Source of the DNA: Candidatus Heimdallarchaeota archaeon | GTDB lineage: Archaea > Asgardarchaeota > Heimdallarchaeia > Heimdallarchaeales > Heimdallarchaeaceae | Length of the DNA: 13,066 bases | NCBI GenBank assembly: GCA_016839945.1 | Contig: JAEOTE010000048.1 | Location: 1 to 13,066 of the forward strand | Direction of reading: 5' to 3' | Shown here: positions 95 through 10,674 of the stretch, piece by piece | Layout of the letters: each line of letters starts with the position of its first letter | How positions within the stretch are numbered: the first letter of the stretch is position 1 | The notes under the pieces: generated by a model | Database searches by the model: none | The model's input: the letters and a program-made list of their open reading frames with translations, nothing else | What the model was told of the DNA's origin: nothing | Position numbers and translations under genes: made by a program

Positions 95-1042
95 ATGAAA
101 TTCATTCCAAAGCATTATTTATTATCCGATCCCTCTTTTTGGGATCCTATTTTCATAGAGTGGAATTATACTGATACGATTCTTCTAACAGCTTATGATT
201 TATTAAGAAATGATGCTTTGATCTATTTCCTTCACTCAAACTCTATGACATTGAAGGAACTAATGAGAGAAAATGGTTTTCCAAAACAAACTAAGATTTT
301 TGCAGACTCTGGAATCTTTATGCTTGAATGGTTTAAGTTAACGAAAAGTAAAACTTTCAAACAGGATTTTTCAAATGTCAATCTTCCAATTGAAGAGATA
401 ATAGAAGGGTACAAATTAATAGATCCCGATTATTTAGTTGCTCCTGATGAGATAATATTGCCAAATGAGAAAGAAGAAGTTGTAAAGGAAAAAACAGAGA
501 AGATAAAAGAAGGAATATTAAAAACTCTAGATGAATTTCCAAAACTGAAAATTGTTGGTGTGATTCAAGGAACAAAAAAAGAAACGATGGATGAGATTTA
601 CGATTTTGAAAAGTCAAATGGCATAACAATATTTGCAAGAGGAGGATTAATCCCAATTAAAAGAAAAAACAATTTGTATTGCAACGTTCTAACTTATTCT
701 AGACAACTTACCACAAAGAATACATTGCATGCTTTTGGAATTGTGGGTTTGGATCAAATAAAGTGCTATGGTAGATGTGCACAAATAGACTCCTTTGATA
801 GTACAATTGTGAGAGCTTTAACTGCAGAATTATATTGGATTGATTCAAAATTAATGAAACGCAGATTTAACGATCAAATAATAAATGAATGTAATTGTGA
901 TTATTGTGAAGAATTAACAGAATTGAAATTAGATAGATATGAATACGCTTCAAGAAAAATAATGATAAATCTATATTTACACAATATCAAAAACATTTGG
1001 AAATATTGTGATAATTTAAAAAAATTTGATGTAATATGTTAA
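95..1042 (+). CDS. tRNA-guanine transglycosylase (TGT/DpdA) superfamily protein, short form without archaeal C-terminal PUA region
   Basis: 315 aa; TGT-fold motifs in order: FADSG (catalytic Asp), APD, GVIQG, LHAFG, DSFDST (second catalytic Asp), Zn site CNCDYC...LHN. Confidence 0.8.
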   Translation: MKFIPKHYLLSDPSFWDPIFIEWNYTDTILLTAYDLLRNDALIYFLHSNSMTLKELMRENGFPKQTKIFADSGIFMLEWFKLTKSKTFKQDFSNVNLPIEEIIEGYKLIDPDYLVAPDEIILPNEKEEVVKEKTEKIKEGILKTLDEFPKLKIVGVIQGTKKETMDEIYDFEKSNGITIFARGGLIPIKRKNNLYCNVLTYSRQLTTKNTLHAFGIVGLDQIKCYGRCAQIDSFDSTIVRALTAELYWIDSKLMKRRFNDQIINECNCDYCEELTELKLDRYEYASRKIMINLYLHNIKNIWKYCDNLKKFDVIC

Positions 1043-1136
1043 GTTACTGATTTTTTTTGTAAATAAAAATTGTTCTTTTGGATACAAATATAATACTATA
1101 ATAATACAATTATAATACTTGTGATTTTCAAAAATT

Positions 1137-2732
1137 CTAAAGTAATGACTGAAGAACTTCCTTTCTTTGAGTATTCAAGTAATTTAGTAGAATATTCTCC
1201 ATTTTACTGAATCCATATTGTCTGCATTTTTTTATAGCCATATACTGAAGTGCTGGTCCAAGAGGATCACCAATCTTATATGCCCCTACTTGGATGAAAG
1301 CTTCCATGAAAATACGTAATTCTAAAACTTCGATTCTGTCAAGTTGATTTTTGTATTTTACTAAAAGAGGATAAATGTCTTTGTATCTTTTCAAAGAAAA
1401 TAATTGTTGTGCAATAAGTAAATCCGCAAAAACATCCTCAGTGAAAGTTGTCTCAGTGGTTTTTTCTCTATTTTTTAATACTTCAATTATGTCTAATTCT
1501 CGCTGTTCATTGAAATATTCCTTTGTCCTTTTAAGAAGCTCAATAGAGATTATGTGTTTAATACGATTAATACTAAAGTTGTCAGTAGTCATGAGTTCTT
1601 TAAGTTTTGAAGATGATAAATTTGAATTAAGTATGTACTCATTCAAGAGCATAAAATTACTATAAAGCGTTTTACTTCCTATTAATATCTCTTCAATTAA
1701 ATCTTTCATCTCTTCCGAATCATAGTCTATTAAACGGGAATGAACATAGAACTTGTTTAAATTAAGAGTATGGTAAATTTGTTTTTTAGTGCTTGAATTA
1801 AGATTTTTCTTGAAAAATTCCTGTTTAAGTATATCCTCAACTTTTTTTAATATCTCACAAGCTTGATCGATTTTTCCTTGTAAAGCCTTAACTGTAACCA
1901 TATGAGAATGAAGAATTATGAAATTGCTGAAATAGATACTCTCTTTGTATATTGGTTTAAGAATTTTATAGGATTTTTGAAAATAGGATTCAGCAAAGTT
2001 AAGCTTTAAATTTAACATAAATCCCAAACCAACAAAATAATATGAAATTGCTTTTACATCAGAAGGTAATCTTTCGAAAATAATTTTATTTGCAATAATG
2101 CTCTTACTTTTACCCAAAATTTTTTGACTGTTTTGCAATCTTGTATATATTATACCTAATACAGCGATAGTTTGTGAAAAACTTCTATAAAATCCTCCCT
2201 TAAAGAAATAGTCTAGACATTCTTCCAAAATTAATGAACATTCTGAATTATGATTACTTAGCCACTCCTCAATTGCATATGAATATTTTACAAAATGAAG
2301 CGTATATAAATCATCTACAAGATCTTCATTAACTAATCTTATTGCATCATTGATTGCCAACAAGCTTTTTTTCTTATTACCGTTTAATTTTTCAATATGC
2401 CAAGTCAATTGCTTAACTAGCGCATTGCAACTATCATCTCTGAGTTCTTTAGCTAGAATATTCATTTCAGAAAGTAGTTCACAAACATGTTTCAAATTAT
2501 CATTGAGATGATAGATTTGCCTGATTTGTAAATCATAAAGATATAAGGTTAATTTGGTATCGTCAAAGCATTTACTGATTTTTAGTGCTTTTTTTATTAA
2601 ACACAATACTTCACTAGATTTATTATTTACAGCAATTGGACGAAGTATGTGGATAACTTCTATTAAATCGTCCTTTGTGGTAATTCCTTCTATTAGTCCA
2701 TTTACAAGTTCTTTCCTCATCACAGAGCACAC
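1137..2732 (-). CDS. TPR-like all-helical protein (531 aa), copy 1; paralog of 7308..8906
   Basis: Long ORF, amphipathic helical repeats with TPR-like A/G/Y pattern; colinear with 7308..8906 (manual estimate ~30% identity in N-terminal ~130 aa, ~75% in a central/C-terminal segment); GTG start in both copies. TPR call is by pattern only. Confidence 0.8.
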   Translation of the reverse strand: MCSVMRKELVNGLIEGITTKDDLIEVIHILRPIAVNNKSSEVLCLIKKALKISKCFDDTKLTLYLYDLQIRQIYHLNDNLKHVCELLSEMNILAKELRDDSCNALVKQLTWHIEKLNGNKKKSLLAINDAIRLVNEDLVDDLYTLHFVKYSYAIEEWLSNHNSECSLILEECLDYFFKGGFYRSFSQTIAVLGIIYTRLQNSQKILGKSKSIIANKIIFERLPSDVKAISYYFVGLGFMLNLKLNFAESYFQKSYKILKPIYKESIYFSNFIILHSHMVTVKALQGKIDQACEILKKVEDILKQEFFKKNLNSSTKKQIYHTLNLNKFYVHSRLIDYDSEEMKDLIEEILIGSKTLYSNFMLLNEYILNSNLSSSKLKELMTTDNFSINRIKHIISIELLKRTKEYFNEQRELDIIEVLKNREKTTETTFTEDVFADLLIAQQLFSLKRYKDIYPLLVKYKNQLDRIEVLELRIFMEAFIQVGAYKIGDPLGPALQYMAIKKCRQYGFSKMENILLNYLNTQRKEVLQSLL

Positions 2733-2817
2733 TCATTATACTTATTTTCTTATGTTCAAAATGATTTATAAAGGAGGGAAATACTAAATTTATTCTTAAG
2801 ATGGATTTAATTTTTAT

Positions 2818-2848
2818 AAAAAAAAGAGAAGGATAAATCAATTTATCC
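2818..2848 (-). terminator. Hairpin plus U-tract overlapping the stop codon of small peptide 1
   Basis: Minus strand reads GGATAAA-TTGA-TTTATCC then TTCTCTTTTTTTT; equivalent structure at the same position in copy 2. Confidence 0.6.
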
Positions 2849-2911
2849 AGGAGACCAAAAAGGTGGTGTTATATCTTCATCTCCATCTTCAGGATCGTGT
2901 TTGTATTTCAT
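2843..2911 (-). CDS. Small acidic peptide, 22 aa: MKYKHDPEDGDEDITPPFWSPG
   Basis: ATG at 2911, TAA at 2843-2845, SD GAGTGAT (2917-2923) 5 nt upstream; 17/21 aa identical to 7137..7202 with four synonymous third-position changes. Confidence 0.85.
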   Translation of the reverse strand: MKYKHDPEDGDEDITPPFWSPG

Positions 2912-2954
2912 TTCGTATCACTCTTGATTTGTTTATATTATCGTTCAAGAATAA

Positions 2955-2984
2955 TACTTAAACCTCAAAAGAAAAAAAATGTCA
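2955..2984 (-). promoter_or_regulatory. Conserved promoter block of peptide/TPR cassette 1 (TATA-like TTTAAGTA)
   Basis: Reverse complement is identical over 30/30 nt to 7064..7093 (TGACATTTTTTTTCTTTTGAGGTTTAAGTA), 43 nt upstream of the peptide ATG in both copies. Confidence 0.7.
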
Positions 2985-3185
2985 ATTCGAAGCAAAAAAA
3001 AAGATTTTGCGAGCTAAACTTTCTGTAGTTTCAGTTTTACGTTTAGCTACATAACTAGTTTCCAATCTAAGAATAAATGTAATTTCTGTATGACGGAATG
3101 AGGAAAAGAAGAAATTCATTCAACAATAATTACTGGAAAACACTTCCACAAAATTAAAGAATAAAGAAAATAAAAAGGTAAGTAC

Positions 3186-5119: not shown

Positions 5120-6928
5120 ATGATTGGTCAACTTAAATTCGCTTGGATTGATTTTAAAAGATCCTTCCTGGCTTCAGCTTTTACTTTAATTAGCCAGATA
5201 ATAACATATTCAGCAATCACAATAAGTATAGGAATTTACTCTATATCCAAACCGTTTCTAAGTTGGACTGTTAATTACACATTTTTCAAATCTTATATGA
5301 TAATTGCTGCAGTATTTATTGCTGTTTGTATAATAATAGGTGGTGTTGTTACTTCTAGATCAATAGAACTTAAATTTCAAAATCAGAAAGAAGATATAGG
5401 AATAATGAAGAATGTTGGGGGGAAGAGTAGATGGATATATAGTTACTTTATTTTTAATCAAATGCTAACAGCAGTGATTGTACTATTTCTAGGAATGATT
5501 TTAGGGGTAGTTTTTCTACTCATTATTCTAGGTTCGTTTAACTATATTTCTCTTTTCAGATATATTCTATTTATGCCGATATTAGGAGCAAATCTAATAA
5601 TTTTAGTTATTTCGTATCTAAAAGCTCACTACACAATTATTAGATTTGTAAGTGAAAAAGACTTTGAAGAAACTACTAGTAAATTGAGTAAATATAAGAG
5701 TATATTCGAATTGAATTCAATAGTTAGAAAAGCTGGCACTTCAGTAAAAATGGGTTTGAAGAATTTCTTAAGATCAGGAAAAATTTTATCTAGTCTCTTG
5801 TTTAGCTTTTTCTTGGTTTTTTCCTCGATTTCTTTTGTTCTAGGGCCACTTACGATTGCAGAAACTTATACATATCAGATAGAAAATGGTTCACAAATAT
5901 ACTCTTATGCAGTAGGAGAAACATTAATGGTTGACTTCTACAATCAAAGTCTATCACTAAATAAATATGAAAATTCTTCGTTTGTAGAAGAACAAAACGA
6001 AATTAGTTATTTTTCAAATACTTCTTTATCTTCTAGTTACATAAATGACTTGCGTGATATGGAGATAGACTTCCAAGAAATATTTCTGTGTAAACTCAAA
6101 GTAGAAGAAATTCCGTATATAGATGTTAGTTCATATGGGTATAACTTAATTGGAGAAAATCGTACTTTTTATGCTACGATTGTAGGTTATAGTGAAGATT
6201 TCTTACCTGAAGAGTTGTTTGTATGGGGAGAACACCCAAAAGCAGGTAGAAATGAAGTTTTGATAGGAGATACTTTGGATCATGAAATATTTGATAACAG
6301 TTCAGTAGAAAGAATGAGACTAAGGGAGGAATCAACTAAATTTAGTATAAGTGGAGTGATAAAGGACGAACTAGCAGCAGGTCTTACAGTATATATACCT
6401 TTAAACAAATTAATTCAAGATGGAATAACTTCTGATCCAAATCTTATAATGTTTGAAGATATCAACTCAACAATCTATGATGAAATAAGAAATACTTCTA
6501 GCAGTTATGGTTATGATATTGGAAACGTTTCAGAAATAATTAATAGTAAAAGAATAGAATATGCGGAATTCTCATACATGTACAGCTCTTTAGGGGGGGG
6601 TTTATTCATAATCTTCTCATTTCAAATAGTAGTTTTTTGTTTTCTATACTTCCTTAATTATAGAAAAGATTACGAATTGTTGTTTAAACTAGGAATTGCA
6701 AAAAGAAAAATCTATAGAATAAACATAACTGCCACACTTCTACATATAATTCCTGGTATGTTAACAGGGATATACTTGGGTTCAATTCTAGCAAGATATT
6801 TCCTTGTACCAGCAGCTCGACTGTCTTGGTTTAGTCTTATAATTGGAGTAGGGATATTATTCTATATTCTTTTAACACTGATAGGATCAAGAATAGGTGG
6901 GAGAAGAGGATTAAAAAGTATAATTTAG
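5120..6928 (+). CDS. ABC transporter permease, FtsX/MacB-like
   Basis: Multiple TM segments, FtsX-type motifs EDIGIMKNVGG and DYELLFKLG, large extracytoplasmic loop; 26 nt after the ATPase. Confidence 0.88.
   Translation: MIGQLKFAWIDFKRSFLASAFTLISQIITYSAITISIGIYSISKPFLSWTVNYTFFKSYMIIAAVFIAVCIIIGGVVTSRSIELKFQNQKEDIGIMKNVGGKSRWIYSYFIFNQMLTAVIVLFLGMILGVVFLLIILGSFNYISLFRYILFMPILGANLIILVISYLKAHYTIIRFVSEKDFEETTSKLSKYKSIFELNSIVRKAGTSVKMGLKNFLRSGKILSSLLFSFFLVFSSISFVLGPLTIAETYTYQIENGSQIYSYAVGETLMVDFYNQSLSLNKYENSSFVEEQNEISYFSNTSLSSSYINDLRDMEIDFQEIFLCKLKVEEIPYIDVSSYGYNLIGENRTFYATIVGYSEDFLPEELFVWGEHPKAGRNEVLIGDTLDHEIFDNSSVERMRLREESTKFSISGVIKDELAAGLTVYIPLNKLIQDGITSDPNLIMFEDINSTIYDEIRNTSSSYGYDIGNVSEIINSKRIEYAEFSYMYSSLGGGLFIIFSFQIVVFCFLYFLNYRKDYELLFKLGIAKRKIYRINITATLLHIIPGMLTGIYLGSILARYFLVPAARLSWFSLIIGVGILFYILLTLIGSRIGGRRGLKSII
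6857..6928 (+). repeat. Direct repeat copy A (last 24 codons of permease)
   Basis: 60/72 nt identical to 8926..8997, with a perfect 26-nt core TAGGATCAAGAATAGGTGGGAGAAGA (6882-6907). Confidence 0.9.
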
Positions 6929-7063: not shown

Positions 7064-7093
7064 TGACATTTTTTTTCTTTTGAGGTTTAAGTA
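7064..7093 (+). promoter_or_regulatory. Conserved promoter block of peptide/TPR cassette 2 (TATA-like TTTAAGTA at 7086-7093)
   Basis: 30/30 identity with the reverse complement of 2955..2984. Confidence 0.7.
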
Positions 7094-7136
7094 AGCTTAT
7101 TCCATAATACTATAAACAATTCAAGAGTGATGAAAG

Positions 7137-7202
7137 ATGAGATACAAAAACGATCCTGAAGACGGAGATGAAGATTTAACACCTCCATTCTGGCAACCTT
7201 AG
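7137..7202 (+). CDS. Small acidic peptide, 21 aa: MRYKNDPEDGDEDLTPPFWQP
   Basis: ATG 7137, TAG 7200-7202, SD GAGTGAT (7125-7131) 5 nt upstream; homologous to 2843..2911. Confidence 0.85.
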   Translation: MRYKNDPEDGDEDLTPPFWQP

Positions 7203-7307: not shown

Positions 7308-8906
7308 GTGGATAGCTTGTCTGTTGAAGAAATGTTGAAATTAATTGAGACAGTTGATACAAGGGAGAAACTTAGGGAAATATTGGATGAACTTTGTATT
7401 TTAGCATCGAATGAGAGATCAAACAAAAAAATGATTTATTTAATAGATCAAGCAATAGAAAAGAGCATTCGTTTTAATGATAAAATAACTTTAGTTGATT
7501 TACTAGGATATAAAATTCCATTTTTATATAATCAGAAGGAGAATATTAACGAAGTACGAAAACTCATTTCACAAATGAAAAGCATTTCAGAAATAAACAT
7601 GTATCATGACAGATTAGCTTGGGTATATTCATACATATGGTATGTTGAGAAATTTGAGGGAAACAAAGAACAAAGTGTTGAAGCAATTGAAAAAGCATGG
7701 GAGTTGTTAAACAAATTTTCATATGACAATGAATACATTTACTATTTTGTACGTTACTCGTATGGATTTGAATTATGGGTAGAAAAACATGATATTAATA
7801 GTTCAATCATTTTTGAAGAATGTTTCCAATACTTCCACAAAAATAGTTTTTACAGAAGTTCTATCCAAACACTTGGAATATTAAGCATCATATATACTCG
7901 TACTCAAAATAGTAATAGAATTTTAGAATTAAGTAAAAGAATATTATCAGATAAATATCATTTTGAGAGTCTTAATGAAGAAGTTAAAGCTATGTATTAT
8001 TATTTTACAGGTTTAGGTTATATTATTGATTTGAATCTAAATTTTGCTGAATATTTTTTTGATGAAGCTTACAATATTTTACAACCAATTCATAAAAACA
8101 GTATTTATTTCGCTAACTTCATTATTCTTCACTCACATATGATTACTGTTAAAGCTTTACAAGGGAAAATTGAACAAACTTGGGATATAATAAAAAGAGT
8201 TGAAGATATACTCAAACAAGAATTTATCACGAAGAATCTTAATTCGGGAACTATACAGCAAATTTCCCATACTCTAAATTTAAATAAATTCTATGTATAT
8301 TCCCGTTCAATAGAATTTGATTCAAAAGAAATGAAAGGTTTAATTGAAGAGATATTCATAGGAAGTAAGAAGCTTTATAGTAATTTCATGCTTATGAATG
8401 AATTCATACTTAATTCAAATCTACCACCTTCAAAACTAAAAGAACTACTTCTTGTGGATAGTTTCAGTATAAACCGTGTAAAACATATTATATCATTTGA
8501 ACTCCTTAAGAAAAAGGGTCGAAAGAATAAAGAAAAACAAAAATTGGAGAGAATTGAAGTATTAGCTAATAGAGAAAAAACTACTAAAACAACATTTATT
8601 GAGGATGTTTTTGCAGACTTGCTAATTACAAAACAATTGTTCTCCTCAAAACGGTTTACAGAAATTTATCCTCTACTGAAAAAATATAAAAATAAACTTC
8701 ATCGAATAGAAGTTTTAGAACTACGTGTTTTCATGGAAGCTTTTATTCAAATAGGAGAATATAAAAGTGGTAACCCTCTTGGACCAGCATTACTGTACAT
8801 GGCCATAAAGAAATGTAAAACTTATGGATTTTCTAGATTGGAAAATATGCTTCATAACTATTTAGATATGCTTAAAAAAGATGCTCTAAATTCGATTTTA
8901 TTATAA
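7308..8906 (+). CDS. TPR-like all-helical protein (532 aa), copy 2
   Basis: Paralog of 1137..2732; shared blocks such as NFIILHSHMxTVKALQGKI, HTLNLNKFYV, RIEVLELRxFMEAFIQ, GxPLGPALxYMAIKKC. Confidence 0.8.
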   Translation: MDSLSVEEMLKLIETVDTREKLREILDELCILASNERSNKKMIYLIDQAIEKSIRFNDKITLVDLLGYKIPFLYNQKENINEVRKLISQMKSISEINMYHDRLAWVYSYIWYVEKFEGNKEQSVEAIEKAWELLNKFSYDNEYIYYFVRYSYGFELWVEKHDINSSIIFEECFQYFHKNSFYRSSIQTLGILSIIYTRTQNSNRILELSKRILSDKYHFESLNEEVKAMYYYFTGLGYIIDLNLNFAEYFFDEAYNILQPIHKNSIYFANFIILHSHMITVKALQGKIEQTWDIIKRVEDILKQEFITKNLNSGTIQQISHTLNLNKFYVYSRSIEFDSKEMKGLIEEIFIGSKKLYSNFMLMNEFILNSNLPPSKLKELLLVDSFSINRVKHIISFELLKKKGRKNKEKQKLERIEVLANREKTTKTTFIEDVFADLLITKQLFSSKRFTEIYPLLKKYKNKLHRIEVLELRVFMEAFIQIGEYKSGNPLGPALLYMAIKKCKTYGFSRLENMLHNYLDMLKKDALNSILL

Positions 8907-8925
8907 ATAGAAAAAAATGTGTTAA

Positions 8926-8997
8926 TTATTTTATATTTTATTAATACTGGTAGGATCAAGAATAGGTGGGAGAAGAAGATTGAAGAGTGTATTATAA
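8926..8997 (+). repeat. Direct repeat copy B (detached remnant of permease 3' end)
   Basis: Translates LFYILLILVGSRIGGRRRLKSVL* versus permease end LFYILLTLIGSRIGGRRGLKSII*. Confidence 0.9.
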
Positions 8998-9293
8998 TCA
9001 CAAACATTATTCTGAAGAAGATAATGACACAACTCCACACTAAGATTAGTTCCTGCATACAGATAATTTTTGTTAATGTTTTTCCACTCTCCCATTGAAT
9101 CATAAATGGTTTCAATATGGGGAGGAATTTGTACTTCTTCAGGTAAGAGCGTTCTTTCATGTTCTCTAAAACGTTTAACAGTTTCGGAATTAGCATGTTC
9201 GATAATAAGATCTATGATTTCTTTCTCTACTTTCGTACGCCTCTGATTTTTTTCTTTAATCAGATTGAAGTGATCTTCCAAAGTTTTAGGCAT
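8931..9293 (-). CDS. Hypothetical protein (120 aa)
   Basis: ATG preceded by GGTG on the minus strand, protein-like composition, co-oriented with 9377..9658; no family recognised. Confidence 0.65.
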   Translation of the reverse strand: MPKTLEDHFNLIKEKNQRRTKVEKEIIDLIIEHANSETVKRFREHERTLLPEEVQIPPHIETIYDSMGEWKNINKNYLYAGTNLSVELCHYLLQNNVCDYNTLFNLLLPPILDPTSINKI

Positions 9294-10532: not shown

Positions 10533-10674
10533 ACATCTTACCACGCAAAATAAAAAAATGTGGTAAGATGTTCATTAAATCAAAAATTATTGTCTTACCA
10601 CACAAACTGATCGATTTCACGTGGTAAGATAATACAGTACGTCTTACCACAAAAAAATAATATCTGTGGTAAGA
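10533..10674. repeat. Array of three inverted pairs of the 9-mer TCTTACCAC/GTGGTAAGA
   Basis: TCTTACCAC at 10536, 10593, 10642; GTGGTAAGA at 10560, 10621, 10666; inner spacers 15, 19, 15 nt. Confidence 0.95.

Follow-up and report, generated by a model that had tools for sequence, protein, structure and literature searches.

Switches built from a small peptide and a TPR receptor are known from Bacillota, and two surveys of RRNPP systems, PMC10075063 among them, do not mention archaea. In Rap-Phr and the other RRNPP(A) systems of Bacillota and phages, a small ORF lies beside the gene of a TPR protein whose groove holds the peptide (PMC10075063, PMC9765709, PMC5199041). Members are recognized by a small propeptide of 10–100 aa, which carries a Sec signal or is short and hydrophobic, and by a receptor of ~250–500 aa (PMC10075063) with peptide-binding TPRs, encoded as a direct neighbour; the peptide is exported, matured and taken up again. 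Within Rap-Phr, duplication of whole peptide genes and paralogs made of the receptor only both occur (PMC5199041). In a further arrangement, that of the leaderless communication peptides and RopB-clan receptors, the peptide has no export leader and its TPR receptor is encoded next door (PMC10518010).

The DNA analysed here, a stretch of 13,066 nt from a Heimdall (Asgard) archaeon called ‘the window’ below, holds two cassettes of comparable layout, each with a micropeptide gene and a TPR protein gene. The family to which they belong resembles the Rap-Phr pair in architecture and evolution: the small ORF is a direct neighbour (105–110 nt in the window), the peptides (18–28 aa) fall in the RRNPP(A) size range and are predicted to lie in the groove of the partner, the receptor has no recognized DNA-binding domain, as is the case for Rap, and there are many paralogs, switched specificities, duplicated peptide genes and receptor-only paralogs. 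It differs from Rap-Phr and RRNPP in being archaeal, in a whole acidic peptide that is conserved, with ~13 residues in contact according to the model, and in a receptor of 530 aa whose conserved part is C-terminal and which has no sequence-level match to RRNPP profiles. No Sec signal or short hydrophobic form was seen on inspection of ~100 peptides, and the receptors (520–535 aa) narrowly exceed the size range (PMC10075063), so the family is not classified as an RRNPP member. The analogy had been proposed in an earlier note on this DNA with the missing export signal as its caveat, and analogy and caveat both hold. Compared with the leaderless communication peptides, those described here are longer and acidic. 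No archaeal description of such a lock-and-key module of peptide and TPR protein was found in the literature readable without subscription. Models and sequence comparison suggest that two Heimdall genera carry many pairs in which a peptide of 20 residues and the groove of the TPR protein encoded with it correspond residue by residue.

Peptide genes and their family

The features of both cassettes are listed in Table 1. From the letters alone, the earlier note had described an unannotated ORF of 21–22 codons 5′ of each large gene, preceded by a common Shine-Dalgarno element at equal spacing and by a shared 30-nt block; all are in place, and the two blocks are identical. The four synonymous changes reported between the copies are likewise present, together with the replacements K/R, H/N, I/L and S/Q, and the DNA 3′ of the peptide stop aligns poorly between them, as had been noted. 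When a peptide profile was run against the 143,201 stop-terminated segments of the same genome, four matches scored 33–46 bits and the next best 10.9; two of the four are the ORFs of the window and the other two precede a third TPR paralog on contig C157. Both ORFs of the window are thus confirmed as members of an unannotated peptide family, beyond what chance would give.

Table 1. Coordinates of the cassette features in the window
Feature	Position	Strand	Remarks
Cassette 1, extent	999..3137		replaces ~240–250 nt in the two closest relatives, the final codons of a TGT-like gene among them
TPR solenoid protein, copy 1	1137..2732	-	531 aa; R71/Y74/H112 as groove code, suited to Ser behind the peptide Trp
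Spacer, copy 1	2733..2842	-	oligo-T tract, putative terminator
Micropeptide gene, copy 1	2843..2911	-	22 codons, 22 aa; ORF 2911..2843, 110 nt 5′ of GTG 2732
Shine-Dalgarno-like GAGTGAT, copy 1	2917..2923	-	5 nt 5′ of the peptide ATG
Conserved 30-nt block, copy 1	2955..2984	-	ends in a TATA-like box; putative promoter of the peptide gene
Left 72-nt direct repeat	6856..6927	+	3′ end of the FtsX-like permease gene
Conserved 30-nt promoter block, copy 2	7064..7093	+	identical to copy 1 block 2984..2955
Shine-Dalgarno-like GAGTGAT, copy 2	7125..7131	+	5 nt 5′ of the peptide ATG
Micropeptide gene, copy 2	7137..7202	+	21 codons, 21 aa; 105 nt 5′ of GTG 7308
TPR solenoid protein, copy 2	7308..8906	+	532 aa; P71/Y74/Y112 as groove code, suited to Gln behind the peptide Trp
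Right 72-nt direct repeat	8925..8996	+	85% identical to the left copy; with the next 50 nt matches the permease end of relative G003

The family comprises 102 distinct peptide genes of 18–28 codons with a PPxWxP core, from ~47 related loci. Among the 84 genes spaced in the usual way, the residues Asp, Gly, Asp, Pro, Pro, Trp and Pro are invariant or almost invariant, yet each of the four codons for Pro and for Gly is in use; entropy is highest at the third codon position (0.53, 0.51 and 1.39 for the three positions). The selection on the peptide that had been deduced from two copies extends to the whole family: synonymous changes dominate, with a pooled dN/dS of 0.16, a value biased low because the peptides were chosen by amino-acid pattern. 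A search of larger regions with a DNA profile returned 82 intact and 17 broken peptide copies.

Looking for the motif 5′ of TPR homologs, as the earlier note had advised, revealed an obligate pairing: where the upstream DNA could be read for 350 nt or more, every core TPR gene (80 of 80) is preceded by a peptide gene no more than 350 nt away, at a median gap of 108 nt. The peptide was found in 23 of the 301 genomes of the phylum, all 23 from two genera of one family (Heimdallarchaeaceae), and strong TPR matches cover nearly the same genomes. These relatives are Heimdallarchaeota MAGs (Heimdallarchaeaceae in some sources), and a search of IMG/VR by protein and by peptide pattern gave no relatives.

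Peptide genes across the family have a TATA-like box of their own. An element similar to GAGTGAT is found at 83 of the 102 peptide genes and a T tract at 86, and 56 of 74 TPR upstream regions have a TATA-like box; in copy 1 this box lies in the spacer ~35 nt 5′ of the TPR start and would be a second promoter. Together these elements suggest that the peptide is transcribed apart from the TPR gene. A sigma-70 promoter scan, which is unsuited to archaea, gave nothing. The upstream position at a narrow distance and the di-proline motif would also suit a cis-acting leader peptide, or a conserved DNA or RNA element, controlling the TPR gene. Such a role is nevertheless very improbable, given a distant subfamily with the peptide downstream on the opposite strand, the T tract and second TATA box between the genes, the free use of Pro and Gly codons, the covariation with groove residues described below and the absence of an Rfam match.

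The partner protein

The large proteins of the two cassettes are 56% identical; that of copy 1 may start at ATG 2720 instead of GTG 2732. TPR profiles match them only sporadically. The AlphaFold model, however, is an all-helical solenoid (pLDDT 92.6) with helical hairpins from residue 7 on, shaped like Rap and NprR, and the earlier description of the protein as TPR-like is upheld by this confident prediction. The best fold match is Apc5 (Z 20.3, rmsd 7.7, 468 residues aligned); a phage Rap with its peptide matches residues 24–387 (Z 17.7, rmsd 6.1, 328 aligned), followed by NprR (Z 16.7) and LGN (Z 16.4). With identities of 9–14% to the eukaryotic proteins, the likeness to these is one of fold and does not establish common ancestry, and since eukaryotic TPRs score as high as Rap the fold is no sign of RRNPP kinship. 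The last 146 residues taken alone form TPR hairpins, with a best Z of 12.2 that is within the range of common helical arrangements.

The extended, acidic, Trp-anchored motif in a long groove also recalls eukaryotic pairs of TPR and linear motif (LGN–Inscuteable, kinesin light chain with Trp-acidic cargo, and the TPR subunits of APC/C), with the difference that the motif here is a free-standing gene. RopB receptors are DNA-binding transcription factors. Their N-terminal helix-turn-helix has no equivalent here, where hairpins start near the N-terminus and no HTH profile matches; more generally, no DNA-binding (HTH), enzyme or defence domain was recognized by profiles or fold comparison. Searches of Pfam, NCBIfam, PADLOC, PHROGs, PDB and viral or Atlas folds gave no convincing toxin, enzyme or defence match, which is an absence of match and does not exclude such a role. 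A longer fused form containing residues 400–531 was not found, which is weak evidence.

Conservation is concentrated in residues 441–520, where 45 columns are at least 90% conserved, whereas the groove region at the N-terminus varies, with Y150, W157 and a small number of further residues as exceptions. Invariant polar residues are H321, N324, Y329, E365, H393, E432 and C503. Beyond the core proteins (520–535 aa), distant paralogs of 550–580 aa belong to this family too. In one group of them, a related peptide lies 34–60 nt downstream on the opposite strand, and in another no peptide is detectable. At L135 (G001:C8:12398-14393) a 560-aa distant paralog lies between identical peptide genes, one on each side in inverted orientation, and at G000:C110:5785-8376 a 226-aa protein, whose N-terminus is basic and coiled-coil-like, is followed by a 618-aa distant TPR gene for which no peptide was detected.

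Predicted complex and residue code

Modelling of the complex, another check proposed beforehand, placed peptide residues 10–22 in the TPR groove with a score of 0.64, whereas the highest-scoring of three controls reached 0.03. Different runs have 69% or more of their contacts in common, peptide pLDDT is at least 56, and the invariant Y150 and W157 belong to the predicted interface. The score passes a mark reached by 58 of 80 solved pairs and 2 of 110 mismatched pairs, in a calibration without chains shorter than 30 residues and hence outside the range of the peptide. This pass may reflect likeness to solved TPR–peptide complexes; the model lends support to binding without proving it.

Covariation, which the earlier note had proposed as a test, was measured independently of the model over 75 natural pairs. 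Variable peptide positions covary best with predicted contact residues: of the 30 TPR columns that covary most strongly, 10 fall in the predicted interface (1.8 expected), and three peptide positions have a predicted contact as the highest-ranked of the 511 columns (TPR–peptide 154–14, 187–18 and 71–20). The residue that follows the peptide Trp maps to TPR positions 71, 74 and 112, with Phe accompanying Gly112 in 16/16 cases, Ser His112 in 13/14, Gln Pro71 in 8/9 and His Leu71 in 8/9. The resulting groove code, read from the same nearest-peptide pairs that it fits, accommodates the nearest peptide in 61 of 68 cases and, of the peptides that lie farther off at these loci, 5 of 29, in support of specific matching. 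The two pairs of the window follow different codes, so that they are predicted not to cross-react in full.

Convergent evolution of the code, suggested by 6–8 of 6–8 independent pairs on the whole-protein tree, was overstated and largely collapses on the tree of residues 10–200, where code changes fall from 7 to 3, 7 to 2, 6 to 1 and 10 to 4. This lower recurrence, together with spacer DNA that also tracks code states (AUC 0.65), points to a swap of peptide end and TPR N-terminus as one block; part of the covariation signal is accordingly block recombination. Linkage alone fails to explain the position-by-position match: groove columns, although partly chosen post hoc, are better predictors of the peptide residue than the remaining columns in that span (AUC 0.96 versus 0.73 and 0.78 versus 0.54), and the code separates nearest from distant peptides. 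Specific binding of the peptide to its cognate TPR protein appears very probable.

The same data bear on two other readings. In the first, a RiPP is made from the peptide as precursor by the large protein, which would be a maturase of a new, all-helical kind. Stacked precursor-like ORFs and the invariant polar residues could be taken in its favour; this is nonetheless quite unlikely for a protein that has the TPR fold end to end and no family match to a modifying enzyme, with stacked peptides that mostly misfit the protein in cis by the groove code and no protease, transporter or tailoring gene travelling with the cassette. Nor was a catalytic domain recognized, which leaves a small chance of a new chemistry. 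In the second, the TPR proteins recognize, as adaptors or sensors, PPxWxP-like tails at the C-terminus of host or mobile-element proteins, and the free peptides are tunable decoys. A 91-aa phage-like protein on contig C95 of the same genome does end in a peptide-like tail, in the place where its homologs carry a PIP-box-like motif, but this is one clear case at 10.9 bits, with a more degenerate tail in two relatives, and one-to-one covariation with the adjacent peptide requires no third partner; the idea appears improbable. The gene of the 91-aa protein (L179:477-752; G000:C95:8476-8751, minus strand) belongs to a family limited to the same two genera.

Gain and loss of cassettes

The site of copy 1 is empty in all ten relatives with both flanks read, two of them at ~90% DNA identity. 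Beside it lies a short TGT-fold gene (window 95–1042), which 12 of 25 genomes from the genus possess and whose last codons differ from those of close relatives where cassette 1 begins. At copy 2, the left 72-nt repeat matches the permease end of relative G016. A target-site duplication by an integrase was considered for these repeats and dropped, the two copies matching different relatives (G016 and G003); they fit recombination between diverged alleles. Across relatives, the site behind the permease is empty in some and occupied in others by a cassette, which is found in both orientations; in G011 it contains an intact peptide gene alone, and in G016 a frameshifted one alone. A 120-aa ORF at 8931–9293 (minus strand) overlaps the duplicated permease end with its last 22 codons; its C-terminal part alone is found in one relative, next to a different gene. 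Contigs of two DNA runs join 8935 to 6953 with 16 letters between, at chromosomal depth, a joint that is not in the assembly and that, both runs being from one study and perhaps the source of the assembly, has no independent support; candidate explanations are a circular form, a tandem copy and DNA of foreign origin.

Cassettes crowd one chromosomal region, between core genes (formate-dehydrogenase-like, PPase, PEPCK, pilin-like, ABC, M42), with up to six on one contig. Many are flanked by imperfect direct repeats of 29–150 nt, 80–100% alike, which differ from site to site. Their content is limited to peptide(s) and TPR gene, with no recombinase or transposase of their own and no fixed ends, and an autonomous integrative element or transposon was therefore rejected. 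They recombine across the peptide–TPR junction and leave stacked and orphan peptides behind. This gain, loss and recombination had escaped the earlier note.

Other repeats were seen nearby. Palindromes at 10533–10568 and 10639–10674 (10–11-nt arms, 14-nt spacer), behind a winged-helix gene, recur beside cassettes in other genomes and are a possible binding or recombination site. In the arrays L134, L130, L135 and L139 a 22-nt core repeat separates peptide–TPR cassettes and unrelated unique genes; it flips orientation around a 108–111-aa gene, is integron-like and has no Rfam match.

Proposed function and its main rival

The preferred explanation, given a little less than an even chance, is that a cognate intracellular peptide holds its TPR protein off and that the near-invariant C-terminus of the latter acts on a host target. 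The peptide would be made from its own short transcript, as the TATA-like box, Shine-Dalgarno element and T tract suggest. Its lack of an export signal, its conservation over 17 residues and a binding end that is the true C-terminus lead us to infer that it stays whole and cytoplasmic. According to model and covariation, its C-terminal 13 residues would lie antiparallel in the N-terminal TPR groove, where variable groove residues would read variable peptide positions and thereby leave paralogs largely insulated. Bound peptide would keep the TPR protein off; with falling supply, the C-terminal 90 residues would act on one putative conserved host partner, at a cost to the cell. Cassettes would move by recombination into gene ends of the one region, and specificity would change by the joint swap of peptide end and TPR N-terminus.

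A pair with such an off-state and such a cost on release would be antidote-like, with TPR genes that keep their peptide and spare peptides that survive. The nearest peptides are intact in 68 of 70 loci (of the other two, one precedes a broken TPR gene and one has lost only its stop), and spare intact peptides amount to 42 (29 stacked and 13 lone, some of which may have lost their TPR gene to contig ends), whereas 8 of 71 core TPR genes are broken. This retention pattern leans towards an antidote role. It parallels type II toxin–antitoxin pairs and orphan-immunity arrays, with a small acidic partner that lies upstream and is never lost from intact large genes, an accumulation of spare small partners, and patchy gain and loss. 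Unlike in type II toxin–antitoxin pairs, no known toxin fold was recognized, the promoters are probably separate and the antitoxin would be a 20-mer without a DNA-binding part.

An antidote is not the only role compatible with this asymmetry, given the duplications known in Rap-Phr (PMC5199041) and the distant peptide-less subfamily found here; with phr duplications and orphan receptors on record (PMC5199041), signalling stays a serious rival. As the main alternative, an exported kin or density signal like Rap-Phr would leave the cell leaderless, return, bind the groove and switch a protein–protein output. Rap with its peptide and NprR align to the solenoid, residues 400–531 resemble TPR parts of ComR and Rgg by features and PlcR by fold (Z 11.6), the multiplication, specificity switching and receptor-only paralogs are those of Rap-Phr (PMC5199041), leaderless signals exist (PMC10518010), and an FtsX-type ABC system and an M42-family peptidase are encoded in the region. 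The transporter and the peptidase, however, are core genes that also lie beside empty sites, Apc5 and LGN score as high as Rap, and the peptide is acidic and Pro-rich, without a hydrophobic stretch and conserved along 17 residues instead of over a short mature part, which makes an exported signal unlikely, though far from negligible. Of the three mechanisms that the earlier note had offered, peptide–receptor switch and antidote–toxin pair are thus both viable and inseparable by sequence, while the RiPP maturase finds no support, given the one-to-one specificity and the lack of a detected catalytic domain.

The antidote reading has a broader form, in which the cassettes are a new class of archaeal system for addiction or conflict that spreads by itself, with a pure TPR effector, a free linear-motif antidote of 20 residues and a specificity reshuffled across the junction by a residue code; this is a possibility of rather low probability.

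Significance

For the genomes concerned, the family adds 4–19 unannotated genes each. Its ~75 natural cognate pairs display a visible residue code and are possibly orthogonal peptide–protein pairs, which can be studied without culture of the host, by means of synthetic peptides and recombinant protein. The family belongs to Asgard archaea, which are near the branch of eukaryotes; recognition of short linear motifs by TPR solenoids would be a device that is used and diversified in archaea as well.
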